Shown: positions 19,614 through 44,560 of the stretch, piece after piece
Layout: every line of letters starts with the position of its first letter
Position numbering within the stretch: position 1 is the stretch's first letter
Assembly: GCA_008632985.1 (NCBI GenBank)
Contig: QPGO01000153.1
Coordinates: 62,001 to 126,000 of the forward strand
DNA from: Psammoneis japonica
Taxonomy: Eukaryota
Length of the DNA stretch: 64,000 nucleotides
Direction: 5' to 3'
Position numbers and translations under genes: made by a program
The notes under the pieces: model-generated
Seen by the model: only the letters and a program-made list of their open reading frames with translations
Told to the model about the DNA's origin: nothing
Database searches by the model: none

Positions 19614-19890
19614 TGACAGGATTTGAACAGGATTTGGGTGCGGCGCGAAATGTCGCGTGCTGTTTAGTTTGCCGCACACAGTTTTGTGTGCTTCAGTTCC
19701 GCGCGTTCGCGCGCGATGTGGTTTGCTTTCGAGCCACAAGGCTCACAAGAACAATGACAGCAGCCCGATTGTGCCAACTTGCACGTCTTTCGGCTCCTGT
19801 GATGGTCTCTGAGCGGAGACTCATCTGCCATTTAGACAGCAGCAAGGAGTTGTTGTTTGAACTCTTGCCACTTGCCTTCAATTTCTGTCG
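19614..19890 (+). repeat. 3' LTR of Copia copy 1 (277 bp, ends CTGTCG)
   Basis: Preceded by the PPT-like tract; differs from the 5' LTR mostly at TA and CG sites. Confidence 0.95.
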
Positions 19891-20024
19891 CTTGTCCTCG
19901 TTCCTGTCAACTTGACACAAGCGCATCAAATCACAACAGAGGATCTAAAGTTTGTCCACTTTGCAACACCTGAGTTGTGCTCTTTGTCTGATCTGCGTGT
20001 CTGATTGAATCAGTTAAACGGAGG

Positions 20025-21484
20025 ATGGCAACGGATGACTTCGTTTGGCCTTCGGGCTTCTTGTTCAAGAATGCACTGCTGGCTTCGACTTCCACATCGA
20101 TGTGCAATGGGCCTTCAGCCACTTCCATGTCGAATTGTGGCCAGGCGAGTCTTCTACGAAACGTGCAGATCATGTCCAATGGGAGGAGTCTCATGTCCAA
20201 TTCATTGCATCGAGTGGCCGCTGGCAGTGCTCTCGGCAGCGCCGCCATTCTTGGAGCGGCACCGAGCGGAATGAGCGGACCTGGCATTCTTTCACCCGTC
20301 TCCCAGCCTGCTTTGTCTACGTCAGCGCCAAGCCGAATGAGCAGACCTGACACCTCACCCATCTCTGAGCCTTCTATGTCTTCGTCGACACTGAAGAAAA
20401 TCACCCCATCGGCGCAGCTCGTATGCGATGAGACTGAATTGGCTAGAGCGCTGCAGATTGGTGATGACCAAGCCCGACTACCGCTTAAAAAGAGGGCCAA
20501 AATTGGTTGCATGAATTACATTGCGGCAGACAATAAGAAGGAAGACGAAACACTTGATGAAGATGTCAAGCTTATGACGATGCAGTACCAATCACGAGTT
20601 GAAAAGGACCGGTTAGGAGTAGGAGCGTCATCAGCGGTTAAGAAGTCACCGAAGCAGGACCGGTCACGAGTAGCGTCTACTGCAGTTGAAAACCGACCAA
20701 AGGAGGACCGATCACAAGAAGCGCCATCGACTGTAGTCAAAAAGTCGTCGGCTGTTCGGAAAAATGTGGACAGGAAGAAAGAAAGGTCTCCCAACCCTTC
20801 TACTGAGAAGCATTGGAATAAAATGTTTCTGAAACTTGTGAGTCCGCAATGTATTGCGTGTCGCATTTCATCCTCCTTTTAAACTCTCTTACTCATTGCT
20901 GCCTTATGTTCTTTGTCTCCACACAGCTCGCTTACAAAACTGTTCATGGCAATTGCAATGTCCCCAATAACTACAAGGACGACCCGCGCTTAGCAAAATG
21001 GGTCGGGTATCAAAGAAAGAGAAACAGGCTTCTCCCGGCCGATCGCAAGGAAAAGCTAGAAGAACTTGGCTTTGCTTTTTGCCTCAAAAAGCATGATTCG
21101 TGGGAAGTCATGTACAAACAGCTGGTCGAGTACAAACGCAAGCATGGCACATGCATGGTGCCACAACTCTACCGCGAGAACAAGAAACTAGGAAAATGGG
21201 TTGCAATCCAAAGATTCAACAAGAAATCACTCACGAAGGAGCGTTTTGAACTACTTAATGAGTTGGAATTTGTGTGGAATGCAAACAAATTCATATGGAA
21301 GACTAACTACGAAGCTTTGGTCGCGTTCCAAGCAAAGCATGGCCACTGCCGTGTTCCGTCTGACGACGAAGAATACAAGCAGCTATCGCATTGGGTGCGT
21401 AGACAACAACGAAACAAAGCTCTTCTCACTACACGTTGTGTGAAACTGCTTGAGGAAATTGGTCTTAAAATAATGCAGCCGTAG
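20025..21484 (+). CDS. Helicase-associated (HA) repeat protein, three HA domains
   Basis: Intron 20838-20926; WNKMFLKL|LAYKTVHGNCNVP..LAKWVGYQR, WEVMYKQLVEYKRKHGTCMVP..LGKWVAIQR, WKTNYEALVAFQAKHGHCRVP..LSHWVRRQ. Confidence 0.9.
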
Positions 21485-23006: not shown

Positions 23007-25199
23007 ATGGATCTCACCGACACGTCGTTTCCTGTTCGTTCTGTCGACACCTTTGGAAATGCAGCATATCAGGCCGAAAGGAAGAAGGAACGGGAGCGGC
23101 ACATGAAAAACTTGGAGAATGCTTTTAACAATGCGACTGATTTGTGTTGCAATCACGACTTTGTCGGTTTGCATCCTTCCAGCGTGGGCGGAGGACATGC
23201 TGACCCAGAAAGCCGCCGACGGAGATTCTCACCGCCCCACAGATCGGTCAACTTGTCACCTCATGTGGACGTATACGAAAGTGTCGGTCTTGAAGAACGT
23301 GGTGATTTGATGAACAACATTGGATATTGCGATGTATCACCTCCTGTGGACAAACCCAAGCCAGTTGTACAATGCATGTTGAGAGCGTATTTTACGACTG
23401 CTCGGTGCATTGATGGGCTTGTCGATTCTGGCGTCAACTGGTGGAGAGCGCGGACCAATCGGCAGCGTAAAGCCCTCCTGAGAGCTTGCGCTATGATTTC
23501 GCTTGTACTTGCTGTTATTGTCATTACCATTGCAGTTCATGAGAGTCGCGGCGTCAGAACGACTCTCCAGCAGAACTCGACACGGTTGCCTCCAATCAAT
23601 GGAACCATAAACAGTCCGGAACGCTATCGAGCGATTCGAGATATTGTATTGCAAGTTACACGTGAGACTGAACTAGACCTTGACGGATCACCGTCAGCTA
23701 TGGCTCTTGCGTGGCTTTCTGATTACGATGATACCGACCCATATCATCCATTTGTGTTGCAGCGCTACGCTCTTGCCGTCTTGTTTTTCCAAACGCAACA
23801 ATTCCAACAAGCCGAAAATGGCGAAACTATCATTATCCCCGATTCACAATGGATAAATTCGGAAAACTGGTTGTCGGCGCGCAGCATTTGTGAGTGGCAT
23901 GGCATTTCGTGTAATAACGACGACGACAAGAGCGTGATTGGGATCGATTTGTCGTACAACAATCTCGGCGGTCGACTCCCGCCCGAGTTGCAAGCCCTGC
24001 GAAACTTGACGTCGCTCGACTTGACGCACAATTCATTGAGAGATGCCGTTCCAACGAATGTCGGTCAATTGACGAGTTTGAGTAAGTCATTGTTTGTCTT
24101 CTTGTGTATCCCATTGACGCTGTAAAAATCGTGATCGAGCGACTGTACGCTAACAGAAACGTTTTGCACTGTTCAACCCATTGCACTTTATAGCGTCTCT
24201 CCGCTTGCGTGAAAACCTATTGACGGGTCGAGTCCCGTCCGAGTTGGGGCTTTTACAAGCTTTAACGGAATTGGATATGGGTTGGAATCGATTCAAAGAC
24301 AATGTGCCAACTACACTGACGTCCAACTTGACCAACTTGCAAGTACTACGACTCGATTCGAACTTTTTCAACGGGCACCTCTTGGATTATAGCAATCTCG
24401 AAAAAATAGGTGAGTATCCTCGGAAATGACTCTTTGATGCTATCATTTTGGTTTGCCAGCGATACTTGCTCTCAATTGTTTTCGTTGCACGTACTTAATA
24501 GTTTCATTGCATTTGCAAAACAATGCCTTTTCCGGTACCATATCGGAACCGCGCTTGGAGTCGCTCGAAGAACTTTATTTGGATCATAATGCCCTGATTG
24601 GAACCATTCCTGCTTTACTGTTTGAAGTACCAAAGCTAAAGTATGTATCCTTCTCAAACAACCACTTGGAGGGCACCCTGCCGGAAATCAAAAGGACGGC
24701 CTTGCAAGAGTTGCAGCTGCAACGAAACAAATTGACGGGAACACTGCCCGCATTGGAACACTGTCCCAATTTACAAATCCTGTACCTCAATGACAATCAT
24801 TTTCAAGGCATGAATGATGTATTATTTTTGCCCTCGCTACAAGAATTGCATCTTTACGACAATTACAATTTGGGCGGAACCATTCCAACGTCCCTTGGAC
24901 TCTTGACATCTCTACGTGTACTGCGCATGTACCGTACCAACATGTCGGGTCCGATTCCCTTTCAACTTGGTTACGCGACAAGCTTGGAAACGCTGTCTCT
25001 TCACGACAATTATGCACTATCGGGAACCGTCCCGTCGGCACTGGGAGAGTTGCTGCACTTGCAGTCACTTCGATTGTTTCGCAATCCAAAACTGCAAGGC
25101 AGCATTCCAAAGGAACTGTGTTTGTTGCACAATTTGACAACTCTGTTGGTGGATTGTGACTTGGAATGCCATTGTTGTCATGATTGTGTTTCGAAATAA
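23007..25199 (+). CDS. LRR receptor-like membrane protein 3 (3 exons)
   Basis: TM ACAMISLVLAVIVITIAV; QRYALAVLFFQT; CEWHGISC; LRRs; introns ~24083-24192 and ~24410-24500; ends CHCCHDCVSK*. Confidence 0.9.
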
Positions 25200-27567
25200 A
25201 GCAATATAAAGTTCCCATGGTTGATTTAATTGAGACAAATCATTTGAAATTAATGTGCTACACACGGCAGGAGCACACATCATTACATGCACGACACCAA
25301 AGATGGCGGGTTGAAGCCGTTCACTTGCGCTCAGGTCACCCTCCTCTGTTGGAACTGAGGAGGCACCAGAGACAACTGCTCTTCTTTGGCGCAATGAGCA
25401 TCAAGCCTGTCAGATCCAAGCACATTCTAAATTTTTTTGTGCCCCATGGCATCAACTCCCAGAGCACCAACAAGGGTCCGTCGTCCCGTCTTTCTCGGAG
25501 ATGGCTGCCATTCTGTGCTCATGGGGTTTGTTGGAAGGGACCGTCACACTGTGGCCAAGGTGGCTTCAGCCAGGAACCTTGTGCAGAGAATCACATCCCC
25601 AACAGTCACCCACTCCCTCCTCCTCTGTTGAGGAGCTGGGCTGCCCCAAATTGAGGCTGGAGCTCCTCAAAGCAATGAACCCCAGGGAGTTCACCCAGCT
25701 GCGGGGAGACCCACCACAGGTGATGAGACCGCACAGCAGATTTGGAAGATTGCCCATGCTCTTGCCTCATGCACCCCAATCTGCTCCTTTTGCTTGGCAC
25801 TGTCAGGAAAAAGCCCAAGAGCAGGGCCATCTCACACTCTCATTTTTTCATCTTGAGGGAGACCCTCACTTCCTGTGGGCAGAGCTGAACAGGGTTGGGT
25901 CTTTGCCATGCCACTGTGCGGCATTAAAAACAAACCATGATGGCAAAGCCTCCGGGGCCAGACCCAATCAGGAGGAGTGGAGGCCCCTGCTTTAGAGGAG
26001 CCCATCTCCCGGTGGGAAAATTGACATGAGAACAACCCCTCCAAACTCAACACATGGGAAAAGACCTTGCTTGGTCAGAACAGGAGCAACATGCTCACAA
26101 ACATTTTTGTTCATTGCTGGAAGTTGTTCCAATGTTTCCTCTTGAGCTTCTTCTCAATGGCATCTGTTTTGACAAAATGTCAGATCTTCTCAAAACAGCA
26201 CACACCAGCTGGCATGTCACCCGCTCTTGTTCAGTGGCTGTTCAACTTGCACCAACTGTCTCTCCCTTGCCAACACAGTGAGCTGCCATGCAGGTGGTCT
26301 GCGTTCCAAGTCAATGGCAACGACAACACCCAACACATGTGACTCAATCTTTCACACCCACTTGGCTTTTGCAGAATGTTGCTGCTTCAGTCAACTCTGA
26401 TGCTTCTTTTTTGGCATTCTTTCTGCTTGCACACACATGGCCTCACATGTTTCACAAACAGAGCTGCCAGTCACAACATGAAGGTTTCTGTGTGACAGCA
26501 ACACAATTGTCCAATTCAAGTCAGCCAAACTCTCACACTCACTCATCATTTGCAGAACTTCACTCAATCAACTTGACATGCAAAGCACATTTTTTGGCAT
26601 TTTTTCTGTGTGCACGCACAACTCACATGTTTCACAATGCTGTGAGAGATGTGCTGGGACAGCTGCTTCCCAAAAGTTCTGCTTGTCTGTGCATTTTTGG
26701 GGGGTGCCAGTGCAGTTTCCAGGTGTGAGAAAAGATGATTCTGTCCAGCATTGAATGGCCAAATTTGAGTGAAAAACCCACTCACACACTGTTGTTTGAC
26801 AGGCTGCTCTAGCACAAATGCTGGACATGATTTTTTGGACAGCAGCTGTCTAAAAACATGCTCCAAACAGACCCTCTCCCAATTTGCTTCTACTGAGAGG
26901 GGGGTGCGCTGCCTGGCAGCATGGCCCTGCTCATGTTTCTTCATGTGCCAGTGAGACAATTGTCAAATGACAGCATCAATCCAGCATGGCACCAAAAATG
27001 AACCCCTCCCCCCAACAATGCAACTTCATGTTTGAGCCAGTGCTTAAAACATTGACATGGGTGCAGCCAAGTGTGAGGCTTTGCAGCCTGGTGAGGACAG
27101 AGGGAAGGAACAATTTGTGAGGCAGAGTGCAGTGCACAGGTGCAAGGATTTTGTGCAGAAGCAGTGTGTCCAGCCACAGTGCTGATGGCTGCAGAAGGCA
27201 AAGGAAAAGAAACCAGAAGGGCTGCATGAGGTGTTGGCACACCAGCTCTCACAGAGAGCTGCACCTGCATGCTGCAGCTTGAAGAAGCAGTTTGAAGGAA
27301 TTAACAAGGTGCCAAAAGGGAAAGTTGTGAGAGCTGTGAGACTGTTTTGGGCACCAAAAGCAAGTGCAGGGGTTGTGAGATGCTCTGCAGCAAAACCCAG
27401 CAAGAGCCCCAGCCAGCCAGCAAAAGATCCCCGCATGTTGTCCATGACCAAGTCGCACTCCACAAAGTGATTTCAGCACCACTTTGGCAGAATTGCATCA
27501 GTGCTTGTTGCAAAATCTCCAAAATTAGCACACCCAAAGCATGTCATCAGAGCTTGCACTGAAAATG

Positions 27568-27594
27568 TCTCTCTCTCTCTCTCTCTCTCTCTCT
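27568..27594. repeat. (CT)n microsatellite
   Basis: About 13 TC units. Confidence 0.9.
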
Positions 27595-29460
27595 GCTGCC
27601 ATGTGCTGCTTGCATCAAATGAGAACACAAAAGCATGTCCTCCATGGCCTCTCTGCAGAGCTGGAAAATCATGTTTGTGCAGCTTTGGCTTGCAGCATTG
27701 GTGCAGAACTCCCAACATGACACTTCACAGAGACGTTGCCAAGACCCAACTTGTGAGAGCAGCACCAAAAGCAAAAAGCAGCACAGCAAGCAGTCAGTGC
27801 AACAGCAATGACAAAGAACAGATGAAAAGAGTGAAAATTCACAGGCACACAGCATCTGAGGTGGACAAAAATGACCTCCAGCACGTGCCAGCACAAGGTG
27901 AGCAGCCAGCACAGCAGAAGCAGAGCAAGCAAATGAAGGCTTGCTTTTGTTGAGGAGGGTGCATGAGCAAAGTCAAACAGCCATGCAGAGAGAAGCAAAC
28001 CAACTTTGTGCAGCCTTGGTCAGGTGGTGGCTCAAGAGTGCACACATTCTTGTCATGCACAGCCACAGCTGCTTGCAAGGCACACCAACAAGCACACCAA
28101 CAGCTGTGCTGGCATCAGCTCCCAGTTGCAAGAGCTTGCCTCTTGCATCACCAACTCAGCACACTTTGTGGAAAAGTTGAAAAGCAAAATGCTTTGACCG
28201 GTGTGTGTGACACGGCAACAGGTGTCTGCCTTGCAGAACCATCATTGGCACAATCTTGGCATGCCGAGAGATTGAGTTGGCATGCCAAGTTGTCGCACCA
28301 AGATTTACGTTTGCCCACCAACTTGGCCCACCAACTTGCTCTAAACCCAACAGAGAGTGTGCATTGCTTTTCAAACAACTCCACTCTTGGCAACAGAGTC
28401 ATCCTTGGATTTCTTCCAACAGTCAATCAGCCATCTTGGCTGGGTGGTGTCAACTTGACACTGAAGAAGAAGACACATGATTTTTGTCATTGGAAATGCA
28501 ACAGCGAGCAAATGGGCATCACTGGCATGCCTGGTTCTTTGAATGACATGGCAATGTGGTGCAATGGCAAGATGGAGTGGCATGTGAATGAAAGCAAAAT
28601 GCTCCACCAAAAGATCCAAAAGATGCTTTGCTCTGTTTGGGCTCCATGTCTGGTCAGCACTTCTCACATCCTGGGCAGATGAGCAGCTGTCATCAGCCTG
28701 TGACCAGCGCTGCATGCATGAAGCTGGTTGCAGGCCTGTCTTGTCCATCCTTCTGCTGGTGCAGCTCAAGACTCCCATGGTGGGTGATGCCATGAAGCTG
28801 ACATCAGCACACCGTGTGACAAAAAAGAGCACATTGTCAAAATTCAAGCAGACAACATGATTGCTGAAGACAGGTTGGCTTGGCCATTTGCTTTCATCCC
28901 ATCACTGAGCACTGAGCACAACACCACTCCCTGCAGCAAGCACTGATGGCAGAGAGTGGGAGCCCTTTGATCAAGTGTGGAAGCCCGTTGGACCATCATG
29001 GGTGTCATCTTCTGATTGGTCAGCATGGCCAAAGCCATTGTCTCTTCCACAGTGTTCCTTTTAAACTGCAGAGGCTGCACAAGCACCAGGAGAGAAACAT
29101 CTCTGGCCCATTGTCAACCAAAGTGAGGACAAGATTGTGAATCAGAGCTTCTTTTGTGCAGCCCCCCTTGATCACCAAGGCACACATTGCCGCTTGTCAA
29201 GATTGCAATGAGTGTGGCTCACTGCCATTCAAGGAAATGCGCACAATCTCAAGGGACTGCAGGGGTCCCACCCAGGTGGTGACACTGTGTTGTGGAAGCC
29301 CATTGGCTGTGCATGATGCAACAAAGAGATTCAAGGCTGTCGGACACACCACAGATGCCAAGGTCCTGATGAATGACTTTCTTGTTGTTGGGTGTGTCTG
29401 CCCAAACAAGCCTTCAGCAGAGCTTCCAACTTCCATGGACAGGAGAACAAAGATGCCAAG

Positions 29461-29532
29461 AAGCAGGAGTGGCTGCTCTTTGATGAAACCCAAAAGCTGG
29501 AGTGGCTGCTCTTTGATGAAACCCAGAAGCTG
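29461..29532. repeat. 33-bp tandem duplication
   Basis: gagtggctgctctttgatgaaaccca(a/g)aagctg twice. Confidence 0.85.
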
Positions 29533-32288
29533 AATTTGTGTCCAGGAACCATGATGAATCTTGACACCAGCAATCTCAAGGATGCAGAACTCAGCTTGAC
29601 AAAAGCTTTTGAGTTTGCAGTGGCTGTTGCTTTGCAGGTTGGGAACAACTGTGGCTCATCACCCAATCTTGTGCAAATGTTGATGATGTGAGAAAGTTCA
29701 AGGGAGATTGCAATGGAGCCAAGCCCTGACACATCAGCCAAGAGAGAAGCAGGAAGCACCTGCTCACATTCTTCTTCTGCTCAACAACTTCACCGCAGCC
29801 AACCAGACCCTGTGGTGCATCCATCTTTTTGGCGGGAAAGTGATGATCTGCCAGTCTCTGGCAACCAAGCTTGTTGTGCCAAGTTTCAAGGGTTTGGGGA
29901 TCAGGAACCCAGGAGTTGTGCACAGAGATGCTGTCAATGGCAGCAAGAAGCAGCAGAGCAGCATGAGAGTCAAGGCTTCTGGCAAAGGACAGCTTCTTGG
30001 GCAACTGAGCAGTCAATGATTGAAACACAGACTGTTGGGTGGCACAATGTTGCCATGCACAAAAGAAGGATTCAACAACACAGGGGGAAAAGCAACTTCC
30101 TTGCAGTTCTTGGCTTTGGAAATGTCTTCTTTCACCAGTGCTGATTCTTCCTGTTGCAAATGACAGTTTTTCTCTGCATTGCATCACACAAACCAAAGTT
30201 GCTGTTCTGGCACACAAACTCCACAATCTTTGTGGGCACCGCCCACTTTCAAAACATTTTAGGCCATTTTCTGCCATTTTGACTCCAAAATGGAGACCCA
30301 TTTTCTAAAACACCTGTTGTTGTTCTCTGTTTTGTTTTTGTTGCTGTTTTGGGATTTGCTGTTCTCAAATTTTCATTCAAAAACCTTGCAAAAACTGGAT
30401 GCCACAAATTTGTTTTGAGCACATTGTGCCCTGTTTCAACGCAAAATTTTGATTTTTTCATTCTCAACAACACTCCATTTTTGTTTCAGAATGAATCAAA
30501 AAGGAACAACATGCAATCTTTGCAAAATCACAAAGAAGAGTGCATTGCAGGTGATCGGCACAATGCTCGTTCATGGTGCATTCTGTCGCAATGGCTGTGC
30601 TGCTTCATGAGATTGTCTTTTGTTGGTGATGAGACATTGTGTGGCTTCTGTCTTTCAAATGGATGAGGCAGGGTTGGTCCAAAGTGACCACTCTACAAAG
30701 GCATCTTGTTTTGGTTCTGGTTCTTGGCAAAACTGGGGCAAAGGACTTGCCAATTGCCGTTGTTGATTGTTGGCTTCATTTGCATCACTTTTGATTGAGC
30801 TGCTTGCAAATGGAGTGTGTGGTTTTCTAAAAGATTGCATCAATGTGGGGGGCAAATGATGGGCATGATGCCATTGCCTTCATCTCGTCAAAGTGCAACA
30901 CCAAAATGCACGAGCTTGCCGTTTCATTTCCCCACACATTTTGTCATGACAATTCTGCCACTTGCACAACACAGACAGTTGCTTGCATCCTGTGCAATTG
31001 AACAGGGATGCAAAGAAAAAGGAACAGATTTCTTCCTTGCATGCAGAAACAATGCCAGCTTCTTGTGCAGTTTGCATGTTCCTCACAGGGAGCTTCATGT
31101 TTTTCACAACATTTTGTTCAAAATGTTCATCCATGAAGAATCTTTGTTGTCAGATTCTGCATTGATTTTGTGCACTGAACATCAATGCATGTGTGTCCTG
31201 CTGGGCCATTGGGGGTGCGCACTTGACTTCAGAGCATCCAGCCCACAAGGCTGCCACTGCATCAGAGTGCACGACATCGCAATGTCTGCACACATGATGA
31301 AAATGTGTTGCCAAATTATAAAATCTGCTCATCTGCACATGATGGTTTTTGTCATTTGGTCAATTGTCAATTTCCTGCTGTTCTTCATGTTTGAACACAG
31401 ATGCTTTTTAATTTTTGTGCTCAGCCTTTTTCACAACAACCAACGATCTTTAACGACAAGCCAAACATTGCAATTGCATGCAATGAAATTTTCATCATGC
31501 AAAGTGTGCACCAATTGTTTGATCAATGACTGTGCTCCAATTGGCCTGTTCGTCTGCATCATCCTCTTCATTCCATGTGTCTTGTCTGCTCTCTTGCAAG
31601 AATTTCAAACATGCCGCTGCCGCATTGGATGTTTCCTCGTCACCGTTCCAAAAAAGCCACACTGCCTTTCTTGCATTTGGGTGAACATCATCAAGAGGAA
31701 GAGGTCCCTCAAAACACAGAATCGCATCGCTGCTCCCCTCTTGACGTCGTGTCGTCTGCTTCTTTTTCTCTTTCTTCATTTTTCCCATCCCATTTTTCTC
31801 TTCCTTCTTCGTCTTGGCACCGCCTGTTTTCACCGTCTCTGGCGTCTTTCCATCCAAATCCTTCTTTTTCATTGATCCCGTTGCCGTCACCTTCATTGTG
31901 TGTCACTTTGTTTTGGATCCATGTTTCTGACTTCTCTCCATGCTGTCCCCATTTCCGAGTGCTTCTTTGTGATTGTTCGCATGCGTCACTTGAAGGCACC
32001 CACGTGTTCTTCATGCACCTTAATGTGCATGTAGAAATCCATGTTGTTTTCCAGTGCATGCACCCTTTCTCCTGATGCATGTTTTCACAATGTTTTCTTC
32101 CATCAATTCCACACTCTGCATTGCCCTTTCCCGGCACAATCTTACGTGGGATTTCTCTGGGAGAAGTCACATGCACGTCTGGTGGGTTTTTGTGTGTGAA
32201 ACTCCAAATCCTGCCAGGCACGCATGTGGCTTCTCCCGCGCACCACTCTGGCACATTTCTGTAGAAACCAGAATTTTGTGACTGACGC

Positions 32289-33356
32289 GTGACCAATCTG
32301 GTGAATGCAATGGTGGACCCACGACCACAACAATCAGAGCATTGGAAGAAAACCATGTCAGATGAACTCCGTCTGTCCGCTGCTGAGGATTTCCATCGCC
32401 GGATGATGGAGACAGTTGATGGTTTTGTTCACGCTGACGCTGCTTGTTGTTCGGAGGGACAGAGAGCAAAGGATGCAAAGGCTGCTGTGTCAAGATTGGT
32501 GGAAGCAATGGCAGAAGCCTGTTGTGTTGTTGTGGCTGCAATGACCGCACTTGACAGTGCTTTGTTAAATCAAGCAACAACCGCTCGCGAATTTAAGCAC
32601 ATCCATGTGCAGTTCATTGAGTCATCGATCGAGACACACTGTTCAGACAATGACCATGTTGTTGCAGTGGAAAATCACAGCAAAGCGGAAATGAGTTTCC
32701 AACGCTTTCTTCACGGTGACGCATTTGACGCAAAAGAATTGGGGCTCCCAATCTCCGTTGCGGGACATCAAAAATCAGAATGTGGGCCAAACATGCTGCA
32801 CAGCTGTGACTCGACGTTGCTTCTGAGAAGCCTCAGGGCAAATTCTGACACAGACGCCAACAGAGCAGCAGAGAGGGAGTTTTCTGTGATTGACAGCATT
32901 GACAAATCCATCCACCGCCGTGCCGTGCCACTCCTTCGAAGGCGACATCTAACACAGCCGCAGCGTGTCCTGAAGGACACACTCACGTTGCTCCACGAGG
33001 CCCTCAATGATTTGAGAAGGAAAGATGTTGCCTTGCAGCGACAGTGGCAAGCTTTGCATGATCTGAGGCCAGGCACAGATCAAATGCGGGGAGGGACATG
33101 GACCGCGATCCGGGCCATGGACGAAGAAGCCGTGGCAAGAGAAAGGGTCCTGCAGTTGGCATTGCAAATCGAGGCACAATTGGTGGCTGTCAACCAGCCT
33201 GACCACAGCGCCGACTTTCAGCAGGCGATTGTGGCTGCCAGGGAACATTTCATGGTGCAGGATGACCAAATGGACCGTGCAAGTGGACACTGCATAGAAT
33301 CTGTGAGGAAGCAATTGCTCCAAAAATGCACACACTGTGAGCGAATGACAGATTGA
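32289..33356 (+). pseudogene. Tyr-free helical ORF, probable mutated transposon accessory gene
   Basis: 355-aa protein-like, coiled-coil-rich ORF with no Tyr, converging on the transposase. Confidence 0.45.
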
Positions 33357-33369
33357 CACGCGTGTCCCA

Positions 33370-36300
33370 TTTTAGAAACAAATCTGACCAACACTTCCTT
33401 CTGTCCTGTGTGGCCCAAACAAACAGGGCCTTTTCTTGCGCTTCTGCTGCTCCTGGACATTCTTCATAAACCAAAACATTGTCCCCATTTGCTTTGACAG
33501 GGACAACACGTAACTTGGGTGAGTGCTGAGTCTTCTCAGGCGTTGAAAGCCAGTTGTTTCGTTTGTGATCAAGCTGCCAGCGACTGACCAAGTCTGCATG
33601 CTGATGCCGTTGCCTCACAGTTCTCTGGTCAGCTTGACAAGCAGTTGGATGGACAACTGCAAAAATCGATCCTGTGTCTTCCTGTTCAAAGAAACACAGC
33701 AAATGGGAGGGAAACTGTTGATTGCCCTTTCGTGTGCCAAAGGTCACACAGGCAAAGTCATGCCATGGTCCTTCGCTTTTGCAATCGGGGTGCGCACGGC
33801 ACGCATCCCTCCCGCTTGCATTGTAAAACTCTGTCTTACAAGTCAGGTGTGCACTTTCACTGTCTTCACCAACACAACTCCCAGCATGTGATTGTCCGTC
33901 CTGACTCTTGATGATTCCTTTTTCCCAGTTGGCAAAATCCAACTGCCAGCTGAAATTGCGGCGTTGAGCCTCATTTGGTCCTCCATGCGTGACACGACCT
34001 GCTTCAGAAAACTGTCGAGGTTGCGTTGTTGTGCGGCAGATGACGGCAGCTTGAAAAAGTCTTTCAAGAGACATTCCCCCAAGCCTGCGTCAAAGTTCAT
34101 CACATGTCGGTGATGACAAAGAAACACTGGGAGATGGAGTGTTTCATGAAGCTTTTGAAGCTTCCACCCGTGTCCTTCTGTTCGCGGGACGAATTGCACC
34201 ATCCGGTCAATGAGGAGACGGATTTTCTTGTTTATTTTCTGAACAGATGAACTGGGAGTTGCGCTTGTGATGGGTGGATTGCCTGGCCTGCACCATGCGT
34301 GGAAGACAAGAAGGTCCTCGAGCAATTGAATGAATTGCTGGACGCTGCAGTTGAGTCTTTTTCCCTTGCATTTTTTCTTTTTTTGGTTGTCGTCACCATC
34401 CTCAGAGCCTCACTCTCCTCTTTCTCATCCTCATTTTTGTCCCAGTCACCCTCTTTGGACTCCTCCGACCTTTCATTGCGTCAGAGTCGTCCAAGTGCTC
34501 ACCAGGTTGGCAGCAACTCTCAAAGTTTGCTTTGGGTGTCTTGCGATTCTCTGGAACAATGGGTTCATCTGCGTCCTCGTCAAGGAAGCATGACTCACAT
34601 GCGTTTCGTCCCTCGCTGGTTGGCAGGAGAAGGTAGAAAACAAAAGCCATTCCAGCCCAGTGGTGAGAGTTGAGGAAGGCAAGCGACGTTGCTCCTTCTT
34701 TGAAGTTTGTTTGCAAAAAGGATGCTTTGCAAGTTGACCGGTGATTGCTGAAAATCCTTTCCACCATGCTGTCCACCTCACTTGCGACCACAGGTGTCAT
34801 GCTGTCTACAAATGAATTGATTGCCCTTTTCAAGGTGCCATTTTCAAAGAGATGCATCATGTCGCTTGCTGTTGCAAGGGTGACGCCATGTGGTTGTGCG
34901 CCAAAGTCTGCCTCAAAAAGACAGTTGGCAGGTGCGTTGTGTTGCTTGAGGTGATGAAAGATGCCCAACCAGTGCTTCCTTTCTTGGTCTGATCTGTTGT
35001 CGTCGTTGGCCTTAGTTTGCACTTGGTGGAGATCCAGTCCTCGGATGAACTCGCATTCAATCCATGGGTCGTCCAGTTTGTTGAAGCCAGTGAGGCAAAA
35101 ACGACAGCAACGTTGACGACAGTTGTGACCTCCACATCGTCCGACGAGACAGTCGCCGCTTTTTGCGTCTCCTGTGATGAGAACAATCAGCGGGATCACG
35201 TGGAGGTGTCGCATCTCATCCCCTTGTCGCACGCATGTTTTCATGCCTCCTTTTCTCATGACTTCCAAAAGTGGCTCCAAAACAACATGCAAGCAAGTGT
35301 GGTGGTCTCTTGACAAGCGTCCCTTCTCCTCCTTGCGATTGTTTGAGAGATTCTTTGCCGCAGATGATGACATCTTTTCCAAATCCGGGAGACAACCAAC
35401 TGGTTTCCAGACACTCTTGTCCGACCATTTGTTGAAGGCAACATGCACAGAGGTCATGATCACTGGTTCTCCGCAATGTGATCCCATCCCTTGTGTCCTG
35501 CCAGTCTTGTCGAGGTAAATGACACTGCACTCAAGAAATTGTTTCTCCGGGTCAGTTGTCCATTCTTCGTAACTGCGCCTGCACCACTCACCCGCCAAAA
35601 GGCACTTGTCATCTGGTCCCTTCGCTTTGCACTTCCCAAAAGGATTGTCTGGATTGGCCATGTTCTCTCTGCTGCACCACAGGTGAGGATCGAGCAAAAA
35701 CTGTTCCCAAACCTTTGTGAAATCCCATCTTGGCACTGACACTCGTTTTGGCAAACCGGTTTTGAAATTTTTGGTTTCTAGAGTGACAGGAACAGACTCT
35801 CTGGGTGGAAGAGGGAAATGCTTGGTTAAGACGTGCATCAACTCTTTTCTCCTTGGCAGAACTGCACCAAGCTCAATGTTGCTGTTGCCAGTGTGCCTCT
35901 CAATGAAATCAACAGTGTGGTCGTGCAATTCCAGGGGAGCACCACGTGTGTCCATGAGCTTCTTGCACAACTCTGTGCAAGCTCTGTCAAGATTTGTCAA
36001 AGAGGGAGTAGAAGCCAAGGCCTCTTCTGCAGGAGCATCACACCTGATCCCCAAACGTTGATCCTCATCATTGATGTCCTCTTCCTCCTCCATTGTCACG
36101 TCCAACACTGCAGCAAAGGATTGATCACCGCCAACATCCAAATCGTTCATTGCCAAAAGTTCAACTCCTTGCATGCTGTGGTTTGATGAAATGGAGGACA
36201 TGTCGTCCATTCCGTGCGGTGCGTCATCCGGGGAGGGGAACAAGGGGCTGCTGCTCGGATCACTCGTTGAAGATCTTGGGAATCTGCTGCGAGTTGATCA

Positions 36301-36530
36301 CCTCGGATGGGATTTGTCATCATCAGAGGATGAAGAGGAAGAACTGCTGCTTTCTTTGGGTGGCCCCTCCATTGTGGCAGGAGTGTCACTTTGATCTGGG
36401 ATCAGATCTTGGGTTTGCAACTCTTGGGCAACTGAGTGACACGTTGGTGAGCATCTCCAATGGCATGCCATTCGCAAAAAACTTTGGCCACAACCGGGAC
36501 AGAGAAGAGGGTTTCCGTCCATTGTAAATC
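33370..36530 (-). mobile_element. Plavaka-like (CACTA-related) DNA transposase pseudogene
   Basis: IYLDKT..GEPVIMT..WKPVG[C]LP..HTCLHVVLEPL..LITGDAKSGD..CRFC..DMMHLFENG, and downstream GWKLQKLHETLHL..NFDAG.GE..KDFFK; broken by stops and frameshifts. Family call is from recalled motifs, not a search. Confidence 0.7.
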
Positions 36531-37031
36531 AGACAACATTGACAGGGCCTTCATCAAGACTCATGCTCGTCGTCCTTGTCTTGTGGATGAGAAGGGAAAA
36601 AAAGAACAACATGCAAAAAATGGCGGGAAATTGGCAAACATTGCACTGTCTTCCAGATTGGGATGATTCTTGTGGGTGTGACGCATCTGCATTTTGATTT
36701 TTTATCTGGCATCCACAACGAACATTGTGCTTTTTATTTGCCATCAAAATGCAGGACATCATCTCCGTTGAAACGCAATGACAGCCATGTCAAAAAGTGA
36801 GTTGGGCTGTTCGTTGTCATGTGTGAACACATTTTCAAATTTCAATGTTGCTGACAACAACTCATGCAATGTTGTGGAGAAAAACAGAGTGCCTGGCTGT
36901 CTCAACACGACCCAAATGACGGTTGCACTGTTGGACAGTGCCACTCCTCTCATTGTTGCCGTGAAAAGATCAAGATGTCGTCTCCAGCACAACTGGCAAA
37001 GAAGAGAAAGAAAAATGAGACCATTGAGCCA

Positions 37032-38288
37032 ATGAGCCCAAGACTTCAGGCAGTGTTGAAGAGAACAGGTGCGCAGGCAGCACATGGTGCATTGAAATCA
37101 GAAGTAGAGAAGGTGGCTAGAAATGATCTCTTTCCACAGGTGAAGTTTCTCAGTCCGTCAGAATTGGCAAGCAATGGCAGCATCTCAATGTTTGTCAAGA
37201 AACAGATTGCAGGTGGCAACATGGACACTTCAAATTTGTCAGGAACTTGGGAGGAATGGGCAAAAAAGGCAGTAAAAAGGCAAATTGACAATCGCAGAAA
37301 CACGGTGTGTTCGGCTGTTGGGGTGGAGGCAATGGCCCGCAAGTCAAGTGACCAATGTGTGTGATTCGAGAGTTGCGTGCATCTCACAAGAAGATGACGG
37401 TGATGCTTTGTCCACACAGGCGTTGTCACCAAGGAAGAGGGAAAGGAAAAAGAAAAGAAACTCAAGGTGGCAGACAGGAGGAAAAAGAGGAAAAAGTCAA
37501 GCCGTGACAAGAATGAAGAGAATGACATCACGTTTGTGCCGACATGGGATCCGTTTGGCCTGGACACTGTCACCGGCAGTAAACGAAGGAACAAGCAGGC
37601 ACACAAGTGGTTCTGTGATCACATCCTGCCTCAAACCAAGCAAAAGCAGGCACGGAGCAGCACCATCAAAACTGGGAACGCACAGGTCTCACAGTTGTTT
37701 ACGGTTGGTGACGAAGCTTTGGCGCCATTGGCTGTGGAGAATTGTTGGCAGGTGTGGGCATGCAGGAACAAGGAGGAGGCGGTGGAAGAATTGGGTGAGG
37801 AAATCGAGCCCGAAGAAACAAGGCCTGCCCCTCGGCACACAAAGCCAAAGAAACAATGAGTGTCTTGGGGAGATGACGGAATCAATCGGTTCAACGATTT
37901 GTGCAAAGAGGTGACGAAAGACAGAGACTCCAAGGAGGGCAAGGAGTTTGAAAAGTGGCATGCGGAGATCAAGAAAAGCAAGTGCGAGAAGTCCGGAGAA
38001 GCAAAAAAGAAGAAAAAGAAAGCACCAACCGGTGATGTGGACAAGGTGAAGGCAATGAACAGCCCAATGGTGGAGAGCAGCAGGGACGACAACAGTGACA
38101 ACGATGAGCAGGAGGAAGGCGCAAAAGGCAAAACGGATGACGGAGGAGACGAGTCCGATGGAGACGAGTCCGATGGAGACGAGTCCGATGATGATCGTCA
38201 GCTCAGTTTGAGAGAGTTGCAGCAAGAAAATGCGTGCACAGTTGACACAGCACTCGGTCATTGCACTGCAGACGTAACAAGGGATTGA
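37032..38288 (+). pseudogene. Degenerate transposon-associated gene divergent from the transposase
   Basis: LFPQVKF..RRNTVCSAVG; WFCDHILP..FTVGDEALA.LAVEN[C]W..WGDDGINRFNDLC; acidic tail with GDESD x3 (15-bp repeat, ~38145-38190). Confidence 0.5.
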
Positions 38289-40780
38289 CTCAGCCGATGA
38301 AATGCTTTTCTCATTTAAAACAATGTTTGCAAAAATTGACAAACCAAGGATTGTGTGGAAATGCAATCACGCATTGGCACATGGCAACAAGGTGGAGCCA
38401 GATGCAGTGATGTGGACACAGTGAAAAACAGCATGCACAATTCTTGATGAGTTGTTGCAACATTGGTGTGGCAAACTTGCAACCAGAGGTTGGCCTTTCA
38501 TCACATGACAACAATGTTTTGCAATGTTTTGACAAATTGTCATCATGCAAATCTGCACATTTTTAACATTTTGTGCGCTCTGATGTGCATGTGGTGCGTG
38601 GGTGCGTCACCAGGCGACTGTCTGTAAAACGGACAAAACAGGATGTGCACGTCAATGATGCCATGCATGCGGCGTGCCGGCCAACCCTCACTTCCAGCAC
38701 ACCACAAGGTGCGGCAGAAGAGGGCCACAATTAGCCGGAGTGGGCATCCCCCAAAGATGACACCCCGCCAGAGCAGCTGAAAAGGAACAATTTGCCCACA
38801 GAGTTCATTGCATTCTTGTCGGTGACAGCCCCAAAAGGCACACCACAATTGCAAAGGACAATTTCATTTGGAAAGGTTTTTAAAAGGATCCACAAAATGC
38901 CCTGGAACCTTGAAAGTGCCGGTGACATGAGCTGGTTTTTGCAGAAAATGTTCACTGCACGTAGAAACCATGCCGGATTTTGCACAGAAAAGCCAACAGA
39001 TGCATCAAAAGGATGACAAGCAAATGGCGCAGAAGAAGAACTCACACTCATGCTCTCAAGGGCCACAACAGAGGCAGCCCATCTCCACTTGAAACAGCGA
39101 AGGTCTTGACTGAACAGTGCAAAGTCCAAAGATGTGACCATCAGATCATCAGTGGTGCCACGTAGAAACAACACCAGGTCTTGCACAGAAATGCCGGTGG
39201 GAGCAGCAAACAGACAACAATTGATTGACGCCAAAGGATGATTTGCACTCTTGCTTGAAAGGGCCACAACAGAAGCAGTGCTTTCACCCCAAAGAGTGAA
39301 GGGCTTGATTGAACAGCAGAGAAAGAAAGTGGTGTTGCAAACCAATTGGCAAGGACAAAAAGTTGTCCGGAGAAGTGACATGCAGAACATCAGGAGCATC
39401 TGCGAATCCACACAGAATCTGCACTGGAACCTGTGTAGAAAAATTTCTGAAACAACAGAAAATTGTGAGAAATGACAACCAGCACACGAGCCACAAGGCT
39501 GCGACACTCGTCTTTTTCCACTGATGAGGATTGCTCATCATGCTGCAACAAGGTTGTGCCATTGGCTGGCAAATGTGGGCAGAATGGGCTTGTTAGAGCC
39601 AACGCAACACCATCTGAGAATGGCGACATCAGTGGCTGTGAATGTGCAGAGCTGACGTCGAAAAGTGTTTGCGCTCTCCATCAGCGAGTCACTCAGTTTT
39701 TGAAAGTTTGGCAAAGGGAATTTGAACAAAAGACCCAAACACCCGTGGTCAGGATTTGCCACAGTGAAGCTGGCTGGGGTTCAAAATTGAGTGTTTTCAA
39801 CAGCGTTGCAGCACAGATTGTCTCTGACATGCAAAAGCAGCATGAACCACTCACGCCATGAAGTCAACAGTCAACAACAAGAAGGCAGCAATGTCTTGGC
39901 TGCCTCGGAAATGGATGTGAGACTCATTCCAGTGTCCAGTGTTGACGCTGTGAGCTCTGGGACAATCAGTTGCACAAACTCCTTCTTTTTCTTTTGTGTG
40001 GTGCTGCTGCATCAGACAATCGTGCATGTTGCTCATCATGGGTCGACTCAAATGTCAAACCTGCAGTCATCAAAATTCCCTTCAACAGCTTCAAACTGTT
40101 GATTCCCTTGTCCTGCATGACATTTCTTGAGGTGGAGCTTGCCATTTTTTGTTCACAATGGCAAAGCATGAATTGGTTCCTGCCACCTGTGTGAGACATT
40201 CAAGCCAATCCCAAGTTCAATGAGCTCAAAGAACTGGCAGACAAAATGAAAGACATTTCAGAGCAGCAAGCTTTTGACAACTCAACAGCACAATTGGTGG
40301 TGGCCTCAAAGACATTCAAGCCAATCCCAAGTTCAGTGAACTCAAAGAGAACTGGGGGGCAAAATGAAAGATGTTTTGAATTGATGGCGCAGCCTCCAAA
40401 GCCGCTGAACCTGCCACCAGTCGCCAAAGAAGAAGAGGCCCTGGCAGCAGCCAAAGTGGCTGAAAAGGAATTTGGCATGAGCTCCCCAATCCCCACCAGA
40501 GGCCATTGTGGCCTGGATGGAATGCAAAGAAGTGGCATGGACGGGTGTCTGGGAAACAGCATGGGTGCTCACGTTGATGATGAGTGTTTGGTGGAATCAG
40601 CACAAGCCGCCTGCGAGGCCTTGGAAGAACTGAATTGTGTCATTTTGAGTGGCAAGGAGTGGCAGAGAATGAACAGAAAGAAAAACAAAGACATCTCTCT
40701 GCCAAATGAATGCAGCATGAAAACACGAGCATTGCCAACAAGCTTTCGCAATGGTGGCAGGTCACCTTTTTGGCTGGTTG

Positions 40781-40831
40781 TTTAGCAAATTTTAGCCCAT
40801 TTTAGCAATTTTAGGCTAATTTAGGCTAATT
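40781..40831. repeat. Imperfect ~10-bp tandem array at the edge of the TA-depleted block
   Basis: tttagcaaat tttagcccat tttagcaatt ttaggctaat ttaggctaat. Confidence 0.7.
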
Positions 40832-41063
40832 GGCGGTCAGTTCGCAGGGTTTTCAAAAACTCTATGAATACAGCCGAGTCATGGGTCCTGCTGGGTCGTC
40901 CGGGTTACAGACCTCCCAAGCCGGGAGTGGTCCGGGCCGGTTGGCAGGCGGCGGCGAACGACCGGCGACCGGCGCAACAACAGCGAAATTATATTCATTG
41001 AACACCAGGAAGTGTCGTTGTTGCTCCTGTCGTTTCTACGTTTGAGATTGCGTTCTATTTGCA

Positions 41064-42020
41064 ATGTCTCCAAAGAAGATTACAGTAGTAGATGCGAGTG
41101 GTGACGAGAGTAAGAGAAAGCTAAGCAATGAACAGGGCTACGAGAGTCTGCTTCAAAAGTTTGGCGTGGAGTCGTTGATTGACAACGAGGATTATGTGAT
41201 CGAGGACTTTGAGTCACTTGTGGATGGCGGAAAGTACACACTTGGTCCGCAACAGAAGCAGCGGAGTGTGCTGCCAGATGTTGAACGATTGCTTCCGCTG
41301 ATGACTGCGTTGCCTGATTTATTTCGAGAGGTGGGAATATCACGTAAGAGTCGTCTAAACTGTTGGGAGAGAGAATCAATGCGAACAAGCAGCAGCAAGC
41401 GCAGTAAACGTTTTCGGAAAAAGGTCATTGAATATTACAAACGTGCAAGCAACTCAGGGAAGAAAGTCAAGTGCCAGATCTTGGATGATTACATTTTCAA
41501 TAGCGAGGCAGAAGACGAAGCCACAGGTATTATTGCGGCTCACATTTGGAAGGCATCAACACGAGGACATGGGCTAGAAGAGTTTGGACTAAGACCTGAA
41601 GAAGTAAACAGTCCGCGAAATGGACTTTTTCTTACGAAAGGACTAGAAGATGCACTTGATCATCAGCAAATCTGTTTTCTTTACAACGTGCTCGAGAACA
41701 AAATTGTTCTGTGGGTTGCGGATACTTCGCTTATGAATAAGACAATTGCTGGATCTGGCAAGACGACAACTGATGGATCTGACATGAAGTTTTCTGATGT
41801 TCATCGAAAACCCTTGCTCTGCCCTCCTAACTGCTTGCCGTTCCGTCGTCTGCTTTCGTGGCACGCAAGGTTAACACTGGAACTGCGGCCTAAAACAGTA
41901 GACGCTCGACGCTTCACATCTGCGTATGACAACTCGCCAGGAAGAGAACATTCTGTCATCGACCCGATCACTCGGGCAATCAGTGAGATGGTGGAGCCCG
42001 GTGACGATGCATCGACCTGA
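41064..42020 (+). CDS. HNH endonuclease (HNH_2-type) protein with a short N-terminal header, Crinkler-like architecture
   Basis: Intact 318-aa ORF: KCQIL..IIAAHIWKAS..VNSPRNGLFLTKGLEDALD..PFRRLLSWHA; normal Tyr and TA content. Confidence 0.75.
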   Translation: MSPKKITVVDASGDESKRKLSNEQGYESLLQKFGVESLIDNEDYVIEDFESLVDGGKYTLGPQQKQRSVLPDVERLLPLMTALPDLFREVGISRKSRLNCWERESMRTSSSKRSKRFRKKVIEYYKRASNSGKKVKCQILDDYIFNSEAEDEATGIIAAHIWKASTRGHGLEEFGLRPEEVNSPRNGLFLTKGLEDALDHQQICFLYNVLENKIVLWVADTSLMNKTIAGSGKTTTDGSDMKFSDVHRKPLLCPPNCLPFRRLLSWHARLTLELRPKTVDARRFTSAYDNSPGREHSVIDPITRAISEMVEPGDDAST

Positions 42021-42336: not shown

Positions 42337-42574
42337 GAGAACATTCTGTCATCGACCCGATCACTCGGGCAATCAGTGCGATGGTGGAGCCCGGGGACGA
42401 TGCATCGATCTGAATTGGTCTTTCAATAGATGTGAGTACGGCATTGATGAGGTCCCGCTTTATGGACGACCGGTCGAAAATTGTGAAGGACTGAAAGGTC
42501 GAAGCCATCAATGCCGGCACCACCATGGCGTCCGATCCTACCGCCACCGCCAAAGACAGCGTCCTTTCTGTTGA
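42337..42574 (+). repeat. Local duplicate of 41944-42182 (HNH gene 3' end and UTR)
   Basis: gagaacattctgtcatcgacccgatcac...tttctgttgac occurs twice. Confidence 0.9.
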
Positions 42575-44560
42575 CTTGCTCTGAGAGAGGAAGGGGGGCA
42601 GCTGCTGTGCACTGCAAAATGAGAAAAAGACCAAAGAGAGATGGGAAACATGCAACAGCTGACAATGGCACTTCTTTGTGCTTAGCATGCCTTCGCATTT
42701 TCTGAGTCCACTGTCCACATTGCTTGCATTGGACTGATGACATTTGTGCCAAGATCTGTCCTCTCCATGCACGCTGCATCGCATGGTGGTTTCAAGCTGT
42801 GTTTGACTGGCAGGGCAAGTGTGATGACTCTAAAAGTCACCCCGTTGAGCATGCAACAAATTTGTCCTTGATGAAGAGCTTTCAGCATGAGCTCTTCTCC
42901 ACACAAGGGGAGATGGGCAACCCCAACCCTCCGCAGGGTCCTGTCCTGAGCACAGGGTCTCTTGGTCTAAAGGAGTGTGCGGTGCTGCCTTGGGTGTGTT
43001 TTGGGATGCCGCCTGCTGACCATTGCACAAGAGGAACAAAAGCAAGGCCAAAACTGCAGGAAATGCCAGACCCTGCTCTCCAGCACTGGAGTGCAGTTCC
43101 CAAAAGGCACAGTGTTGTGCTTCCTACCCTGACATCACTTCAGTGACTCCCCAGGTCAGCCAAAGCAAGTCAAGCACACAATTCCCCCCTTGATGAGACT
43201 CCTGGGCAGTGATGCCCCAAAAGAACTGGAAGCAAGGAAGGCCTCCAAAACCTTCGCACAACACAAGCCAGTGAGTGACTCAAGTCACACAGCCTGTGCA
43301 CAGCAGCACAAAAAAGAGGGAAGCAAAAGAGCAATGTCCATGCAGTGCTGCCACATCTTGTGAGCAGGTCCAGCCACTCCCAACTTTTCTTTCTTCTTCC
43401 GTTGGTTGACTGCATCAATGTCATCTGCCACGACCTTGTGGGCAACAGCCCAAGAGTCATGCCCTCACCAAAAGGAATGACTCACATCACACATGTCTTG
43501 AATGTCCACAAGCAAAGTGATGTCAGCCACAACAGGGCAGGGCAATCATCACAAATGTTCCCCAGGAGGTCCTGCAGCAGAGCATGTTGAGATCCAGGGT
43601 TGTCAAAACCTTCCCGTCCAGGCTCAACACAGTGGGGCCTCTGGCACAACCATGCTCAGCTTGAATTGCAGCCACTGTTTCCACCCAACACCATGTGTTT
43701 GTTCCCAAACTTGTGGTGTTGACACTCGGGAGGAGGTGCTGCCACTCCCCTTGTTCTCCCTTGACCCATCCTGGCAGAGGCACAACAATGCACAAAGGAT
43801 GCTTGGGGAGATGGTGCGCCAATGCCGACAAGCCTGTCAACAGGCCTTCCGGCCCTCCAACAGCACACAGCTTGCCACAAAATGCAACTCCACTGCAAGG
43901 CACACAAACTGGCCCACCTCCATTGGGAAGCAATGTGCTTTTTCATCCAATCAGGGGAGGAGGAGATGCTGCATCACTTCTTCCACCTTTGCCACCTGGT
44001 CCAGGTGCCAGTCTTGGCCCATCCTCTTCTTGCACCCTGTCACAAAATGCTGAAACCACAACAATGCACAAGGGTCTTTGCATGTTTGCAGGTGCTGTTT
44101 TCCTTCAAGGTCCCCTGATGCAAGGGCTCTGGCATTTGCCTGAGCCGCGGCTTGTGCTTGATTTGAACAAGCTGTGCGCAACTTCCGGATGGTGTCAAAC
44201 TGGGTGTGGGCAGGTTGGCTGGTCAATGCACCAAAAACACCCAAAAATGACATTGTGAGGAGGATTGTCTCCTGTCACCATCACAACCACCAGCACATTG
44301 GGCCATTTTCTCTGGGATCACTTGCAGCAAAATGCGCACAGTGTGGGGTGGTGCAAACATGAGCGCACAAAAAACAATTTAATCTGTGAGCTGTTTGGCG
44401 TGCAGAACTGACCATGGGGTCACCAGCACTGGCCACCACCACCACAAATCACCATGTCATCAACAAGAAGGAAGAACTTTGTGTTGCTGCCGCCAAACAC
44501 ACAGTGAGAGCCAAATCTTCTAACACTGCAGCATGTGGCAAGAAACCAGGAACATTTTCA
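42575..44560. repeat. TpA/CpG-depleted degenerate element, family not recognised
   Basis: Sharp loss of TA and CG relative to both flanks. Confidence 0.6.

Follow-up and report, generated by a model that had tools for sequence, protein, structure and literature searches.

Hypermutation confined to TpA dinucleotides has been described in the chlorarachniophyte Bigelowiella natans, where de novo changes of TpA to TpG or CpA arose in two viral inserts of mutation-accumulation lines (Mettrop et al., bioRxiv 10.64898/2026.01.13.699255). According to the preprint, clusters poor in TpA and rich in CpA and TpG are enriched for reverse transcriptase and DDE domains in that genome, and an ADAT2-like deaminase is proposed as the agent (bioRxiv 10.64898/2026.01.13.699255). 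Its main text holds no flank analysis, the words trinucleotide, context, flank and neighbo- being absent from it. The literature yielded nothing else on TpA-to-TpG/CpA hypermutation; the other matches concerned fungal repeat-induced point mutation (RIP), a process running in the opposite direction. This report deals with a second instance of this just-described kind of process, found in 64,000 nucleotides of contig QPGO01000153.1 (Psammoneis japonica, assembly GCA_008632985.1, positions 62,001 to 126,000; hereafter the window), above all in a TpA-depleted block at positions 25285-40782 of that window. TpA hypermutation as such is already in print for B. natans; what is new is its occurrence in a likely diatom and a flank rule, whereby the rate at a given A is set by the bases 3′ of it. 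At the +1 position T is faster than C, C is much faster than G, and G equals A, while an A at +2 protects.

The likeness to B. natans, as far as the preprint describes the process there, lies in near-exclusive A:T to G:C transitions, confinement to TpA, and blocks of foreign or transposon origin, all three of which are found here. The two cases differ in lineage (a chlorarachniophyte there, probably a diatom here) and in degree: the nucleocytoplasmic large DNA virus region of B. natans has a TpA observed/expected ratio (obs/exp) of 0.45, compared with 0.06-0.10 in the present blocks, which are near saturation. Fungal RIP, in the accounts available, is likewise dinucleotide-specific, limited to transitions, and ruins transposons in place within sharply bounded blocks. 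However, under RIP CpA becomes TpA and stop codons appear; here TpA is lost, CpA and TpG are gained, and TAA and TAG are removed. RIP is also triggered by duplication, while in the window 2-kb duplicates of 98% identity are spared and a single embedded fragment is hit.

Two families of deaminases offer partial parallels. For TadA/ADAT enzymes, U (T) lies 5′ of the target A, as it does here, and the change of UAC to UIC gives Tyr to Cys, although the core reported for bacterial mRNA is UACG (PMC11472039), and in the window T is favored over C at +1 and TACG is retained more often than TACT or TACC. Natural TadA, moreover, works on RNA loops, and the process described here on both strands of chromosomal DNA. 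DddA resembles the putative agent in being a deaminase of duplex DNA with a one-base 5′ context (5′-TC), as set out in its description (PMC10442228). It is, however, a cytosine deaminase and a bacterial toxin, and is not targeted to chromatin. We know of no natural adenine equivalent of DddA.

Blocks were called with a two-state hidden Markov model on TpA starts, with the expected TpA taken from base composition; all counts come from the one 64-kb window and from fetched metagenome loci. Five TpA-depleted blocks result, in which TpA reaches 6-10% of the expected number, whereas the six normal segments reach ~58%. The focal block holds 60 TpA where 1032 are expected, and its limits are slightly narrower than the 25260-40790 of the original prediction. 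The remaining four are a block with copia element A (11978-20317, forward strand; 44 seen, 429 expected), a small block in which both TpA and CpG are depleted (42462-44520; 6 seen, 117 expected), the transposon part of the first unit of a tandem duplication (47574-49456; 5 seen, 115 expected), and a block that combines the remnant of a transposon with a mutated piece of a host gene and with copia element B (51598-61800, reverse strand; 58 seen, 529 expected). All five have abrupt edges and are limited to transposon-derived DNA. The normal parts of the window are eukaryotic, with a GC content of ~0.46 and open frames with LRR, BTB and HNH_2 domains.

The change in composition is narrow. Among the 16 dinucleotides, shifts from background to blocks are limited to TA (obs/exp 0.57 to 0.08), TG and CA (1.17 to 1.61) and, in certain blocks only, CG (1.01 to 0.58); ApA is unaltered (background 1.19, blocks 1.23). 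The strong loss of CpG is found at 25500-31500, 12000-13500, 42500-44500, 47500-49500 and 51600-53500, where 2-7 CpG are left per 500 bp in comparison with ~25-35, and the copia elements retain most of theirs. This suggests that the CpG-poor block parts are older, cytosine-methylated remnants.

The TpA sites that survive in the blocks are strongly skewed in their flanks. Sites may be sorted into YTAR (Y, pyrimidine; R, purine), which reads TAR on both strands; a mixed class of YTAY and RTAR; and RTAY. The 60 survivors of the focal block comprise 29 YTAR, 31 mixed and 0 RTAY sites, and the 173 survivors of all blocks 78, 81 and 14, whereas the 1049 TpA of the background are made up of 169, 586 and 294 (chi-square against background: focal block, p 1.4e-11; all blocks, p 1.1e-19). 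The enrichment of YTAR, which the original prediction had drawn from eight residual TA examples, all of them present in the DNA (25428, 25925, 25993, 26810, 26851, 27045, 27526 and 30260), is confirmed and is threefold; the wording that survivors are "mostly" YTAR overstates a share of 45-48%, or about half. The prediction would have failed had all NTAN classes been equally depleted inside the blocks relative to outside, and they are not. Per base pair, the ratio of block to background is 0.36 for CTAA, 0.34 for TTAA, 0.19 for CTAG, 0.16 for CTAC, 0.11 for GTAA, 0.105 for GTAC, 0.056 for ATAA, 0.041 for ATAG, 0.013 for ATAC and 0.010 for ATAT, so that depletion ranges from ~3-fold (CTAA, TTAA) to ~100-fold (ATAT).

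These ten tetramer classes are fitted by an additive two-strand Poisson model, in which the 3′ neighbor of the A on each strand determines how fast that A is lost (deviance 9.4, 6 df). Relative to a 3′ A, log-survival changes by -0.08 ± 0.13 for G, -0.79 ± 0.15 for C and -1.94 ± 0.23 for T. The influence of the second base is seen in TARA, present on either strand at 109/173 survivors compared with 285/1049 sites of normal DNA, and in TTTAG/CTAAA, which accounts for 27/173 and 35/1049, respectively. Oriented ratios are highest for TAGA (0.33) and TAAA (0.27) and fall to 0.004 for TATC. TACG, with a per-bp ratio of 0.137, outlasts TACC as well as TACT (0.05). It is because of this dependence of the rate on the 3′ bases that YTAR sites, above all TTTAG/CTAAA, persist while ATAT and ATAC are nearly gone.

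Two Ty1/copia elements permit the same comparison between related copies. Element A (13809-19911, forward strand; RVT_2, E 5e-24) has long terminal repeats (LTRs) at ~13809-14084 and 19614-19889 and carries CVDD as its catalytic motif; element B (54486-61526, reverse strand; RVT_2, E 1.5e-22) has LTRs at 54486-54761 and 61251-61526 and an intact YVDD. They differ by 337 substitutions, 321 of which are transitions. TA/TG/CA alternations account for 166 substitutions, among them 67 sites at which one copy has TG and the other CA, and CG-to-TG/CA changes for another 103. Where one copy has TA, its partner is TG at 18 sites, CA at 14 and something else at 2 (32/34 transition products). With the analysis restricted to the 107 of 119 inferred TA sites that have identical flanks, TA is kept in 29/44 YTAR, 30/118 mixed and 8/52 RTAY site-copies (p 9e-8), and the order of the individual tetramers agrees with the ranking based on the background.

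The LTRs provide a still closer control. Across the four copia LTRs, which share 15 TA-derived sites by script count, TTAG is kept in 12/16 copies and the other TA-derived contexts in 5/44 (Fisher p 5e-6), in line with the original statement that the LTRs keep tttag/ctaaa. By LTR alignment, the retained TTTAG sites of the 5′ LTR of element A (13857-14029, forward strand) lie at 13857, 13886 and 14025, and the homologous CTAAA sites of element B at 54541, 54680, 54709, 61306, 61445 and 61474.

An ancestral composition independent of the window's genes was taken from metagenomes. Among 49 related copia loci, 42 are unmutated (163 kb) and serve as the baseline, 3 are TpA-depleted, and 4 intermediate loci (L004, L007, L039 and L043, with TpA obs/exp of 0.54, 0.52, 0.59 and 0.53) were left out of both sets. 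YTAR makes up 1410/8727 TpA sites (16%) of the unmutated relatives and 36/84 of those in elements A and B together (p 1e-10). Against the same baseline, the three depleted loci, L035, L030 and L017 (TpA obs/exp 0.13, 0.27 and 0.31), have 31/88 YTAR (p 2e-6). Between L030 and L035, TA is kept at 18/36 YTAR, 14/38 mixed and 2/16 RTAY sites (p 0.036), and the YVDD motif is replaced by HVDD in L030 and by CVDD in L035. Since these loci combine the same loss of TpA with YTAR-rich survivors, the process also operates in environmental populations. The three loci belong to another copia family, and L030 (129-1871) and L035 (1-1738) share 94% identity and are TG/CA-discordant at 20 sites.

The LTR pairs also date the process. 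The two LTRs of one element are identical when inserted, yet those of element A now differ at 13 TpA-type, 6 CpG-type and 2 other positions, and those of element B at 12 TpA-type, 1 CpG-type and 4 other positions. One site reads TATA, TGTG, TGTG and CACA across the four LTRs. LTRs of one element that diverge at TpA, with TG in one and CA in the other, mean that mutation took place after integration, on DNA.

A fragment of a host gene with a known ancestor shows what the process does to DNA that is not itself a transposon. Positions 45555-54485 form a tandem duplication (period ~4163 bp; units 98% identical), each unit holding an LRR gene and a TpA-depleted transposon remnant; the remnant of unit 1 (47574-49456) has its twin in unit 2 at ~51737-53619. 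The third unit is truncated by the copia B LTR at 54486. What is left of it, a mutated piece of the LRR gene lying between the transposon remnant and element B (53604-54485, forward strand), has an unmutated twin at 49440-50321 and a second unmutated copy at 45555-46155. Compared with the twin, 19/22 ancestral TpA have changed (10 to TG, 9 to CA), as against 6/54 CpG and 5 other substitutions; of the 30 substitutions, A>G or T>C at TpA account for 19 and CpG sites for 6. By arithmetic from these counts, TpA decays ~17 times as fast as CpG and a few hundred times as fast as other sites.

The tandem units also bear on timing and on the trigger. Between the transposon twins of units 1 and 2, TG/CA and TA/TG alternations are found at 47880-1, 48249-50, 48209, 48227, 49278, 49323 and 49393, and the twins' TG/CA-discordant sites mean that the mutator was still at work once the duplication had taken place. 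The gene parts of the two units, which are 2 kb long, 98% identical, duplicated and not embedded in transposons, have normal TpA. As the duplicated genes are spared and the embedded fragment is mutated, the trigger is position rather than homology, and the positional cue is probably chromatin state.

The direction of the changes offers a test of the flank rule that is separate from survival. At sites with TAY on one strand only, it is the A of the TAY strand that changed in 9:4 cases in the host fragment and in 14:4 cases at half-retained copia sites (9 uninformative), or 23/31 overall (p 0.011). TG/CA-discordant copia sites, at 49:39, are near 1:1 by construction and carry no information on direction. 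The same bias may be followed in the encoded proteins, where Tyr makes up 0.4-0.5%, Cys 3.6-4.2% and His 5.0% in elements A and B, as compared with 2.8-5.3% Tyr and 0.5-2.7% Cys in their homologues P0009-P0040; at one site, NACLEA of B corresponds to NAHLEA of A. At 28 alignment columns with Tyr in at least 60% of 21 homologues, the two copia copies have Cys 28 times, His 8, Phe 6 and Tyr 4. With shared states counted once, a pyrimidine before the Tyr codon, which places TAR on the other strand, gives 14 Cys to 2 His, and a purine 8 to 4; certain of these Tyr sites belong to the half-retained set as well, which makes the two direction tests partly non-independent. The match to Tyr codons follows from the flank rule and is not what causes it.

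Survival and direction together support the view, put forward in the original prediction, that TAY is changed fast and TAR slowly, with the refinement that T exceeds C at +1 and that A at +2 protects. Some TAR sites do change, as had also been anticipated: in the host fragment TTAG became TTGG and CTAG became CTGG at the sites corresponding to 49588 and 50002 of the unmutated twin. A runs test for strand-coordinated clusters of hits found no clustering (51 and 47 runs, with 43 and 42 expected, among ascertained sites).

The observations would be explained if transposon-derived DNA, once integrated, were subject to a block-limited process that turns TpA into TpG or CpA. What the data show is that hits at TpA occur on either strand, independently from copy to copy, and almost only as transitions, with ApA and other steps spared. 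The agent would be a DNA adenine deaminase that converts A to inosine, which is copied as G, and prefers 5′-T-A-Y-3′; its recruitment would depend on silenced chromatin, not on homology between sequences, and the whole would be the same kind of process as in B. natans, here in a probable diatom. We consider this explanation, taken as a whole, to be likely. More tentatively, a natural, chromatin-aimed adenine deaminase of duplex DNA that reads 5′-T-A-Y-3′ on both strands might form a RIP-like defense against transposons in diatoms and chlorarachniophytes, an idea we hold to be possible but short of probable.

Several points weigh against this explanation. The data come from a single window with 173 survivors, for which background genes are an imperfect proxy of ancestral transposon composition, and copies A and B may share mutations from before their split, so that counts are partly non-independent. 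Taken alone, the contrast of 14:2 with 8:4 in Cys and His is non-significant (Fisher p 0.35), and two ATAA sites in the LTRs became ATGA in 3/4 copies each, opposite to the rule. A compositional test of direction, based on the excess of NTGN over NCAN, is noisy and gives no clear direction in the copia set; in the focal and CpG-poor sets its sign agrees for ATAG, CTAC and GTAA, and ATAA is ~50:50 in the focal block. The window contains no deaminase gene. Judged by sequence, the window is probably not from B. natans, two of its host genes having no near-identical match in the protein collection. Diatom origin is suggested by two leads, one being that, of the named copia relatives, the nearest belongs to the diatom Fistulifera solaris (55% identity), the other that the nearest Atlas clusters of the LRR protein are mostly diatom; the Atlas clusters of the BTB protein pointed to no usable taxon. 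Finally, deamination of A leaves the same trace as a change that starts at the paired T, and enzyme preference the same trace as context-dependent repair.

This last ambiguity gives rise to two of the rival explanations. If all TpA were hit evenly and the intermediate, such as I:T or G:T, were better repaired in YTAR or TARA, the sequence would record the same net outcome, and the additive two-strand model would fit equally well; nothing speaks directly against this, but the bias in direction (23/31 overall, and the 14 Cys to 2 His) then needs repair that depends on the neighboring base, which is possible, and we regard the explanation as unlikely. Alternatively, the T of 5′-R-T-A-3′ might be modified or mispaired and read as C, for instance as a hydroxymethyluracil-type base, to which all counts are blind because an A-to-G change appears as T-to-C when the opposite strand is read. 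The modified thymine would have to give clean T-to-C changes, given that 32/34 partners of TA are TG or CA, and we know of no thymine route that yields them. The authors of the B. natans preprint, on their own account without proof, favor adenine deamination (bioRxiv 10.64898/2026.01.13.699255), and we think a thymine origin quite improbable. Error-prone synthesis of the kind performed by DNA polymerase eta (Pol eta) during repair of silenced DNA is attractive in that the enzyme prefers 5′-WA hot motifs and, in somatic hypermutation, T-to-C transitions build up on TA; the published spectrum, however, includes both transitions and transversions (PMC9723645), while here transitions make up 321/337 and 32/34 changes. 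WA also includes AA, and ApA is untouched (1.19 and 1.23); near-saturation of one dinucleotide would likewise be unlike patchy repair synthesis. Such a polymerase is a very improbable agent.

The remaining rivals place the changes elsewhere than in the action of a mutator on integrated DNA. Survivors might be new TpA formed by C-to-T at CpA or TpG after saturation, and some must be, since the blocks are rich in CA and TG (obs/exp 1.61); LTR column 22, with TA in 1/4 LTRs, could be such a case. Even back-mutation, though, predicts 39 YTAR, 91 mixed and 43 RTAY sites where 78, 81 and 14 are observed (p 1.6e-13), and the two TTAG sites with TA in 4/4 LTRs and the third with TA in 3/4 would need 11 parallel back-mutations, so we give little credence to back-mutation as the source of the pattern. 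An artefact of assembly or base calling at modified TpA has in its favor that the only run containing the stretch, X1, may be the assembly's own source sample. Nevertheless, contigs built independently from that run show 1 difference from the window across 24500-27179 and 2 across 28005-31287, both at ~65x word depth; the same site is TG in one copy and CA in another; and unrelated metagenome assemblies have the same signature, which makes an artefact scarcely credible. Editing of transposon transcripts by an ADAR-like enzyme, fixed by reverse transcription before integration, would share with ADAR hyper-editing the change of A to I, the clustered editing of repeats and the U before the edited A, as ADAR is described in the preprint (bioRxiv 10.64898/2026.01.13.699255), and copia does pass through RNA. 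It is refuted for the bulk of the changes by the TG/CA differences within LTR pairs of one element, the substrate being integrated DNA. Cys and His outcomes in one copy mean that both strands are hit, and the host-gene fragment is mutated although it has no RNA route. The 3′ preference of ADAR is for G, whereas here it is for pyrimidines, T above all, and the 5′ T is near-obligatory; the chance that such editing accounts for the blocks is close to nil.

Returning to the deaminase, the flank rule narrows the kind of enzyme to be considered. Both Pol eta and ADAR are disfavored by it, and the UACG core of TadA is at odds with it; the comparison with Pol eta and TadA signatures, which the original prediction had proposed, gives a match to neither. 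Its features may serve as a fingerprint for the gene: T needed at -1; T > C >> G = A at +1; A protective at +2; action on both strands; transitions only; and ApA spared. If such a deaminase acts in both diatoms and chlorarachniophytes, it would be an old or repeatedly acquired arm of genome defense in protists, and if the window is from a diatom, the process occurs in a second, ecologically dominant lineage. A natural adenine deaminase of duplex DNA, should it be borne out, would also hold practical interest for base editing in places out of reach of guide RNAs.

The process also has consequences for annotation. The window has 51 frames of at least 200 aa, many of them stacked in the blocks and overlapping on both strands (for example at 14618-19915 and 55357-60428). 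As the process removes TAA and TAG without ever creating them, long overlapping frames arise in the blocks; the loss of these stops and of Tyr leaves long false open frames that would mislead gene callers. Genuine transposon proteins in the blocks, in turn, score poorly against family models.

The focal block is itself composite. From 25.3 to 31.3 kb it is present at single-copy word depth (~65) and is also CpG-poor; from 31.3 to 38.7 kb it consists of a high-copy repeat family with a word depth of 5,000-28,000, whose copies differ almost only by transitions. A Pfam search of 15 open frames of the block gave sub-threshold matches only. One of these is to a 631-aa frame in the high-copy repeat (34402-36297, reverse strand), which matches PF18759 with E 0.0016 and 18.2 bits, under the 26.3-bit cut-off, and its weak likeness to Plavaka (CACTA-like) transposases may be taken as a lead. 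Were the family at 31300-38700 of the Plavaka/CACTA type, it would be a DNA transposon without an RNA stage. A (CT)n microsatellite lies at 27574-27595, where read contigs end. Just past the right edge of the block, at 40783-40830, is a run of short repeats rich in TTTAG (gtttagc, ttttagc, ttttagg, atttagg), the same word that resists the mutator within the blocks.

Between the focal block and the small block that follows it, a 1.7-kb island of normal TpA carries a frame resembling HNH_2 endonucleases (41046-42020, E 2.6e-7). The best protein matches of two host genes of the window are 70% and 32% identical.

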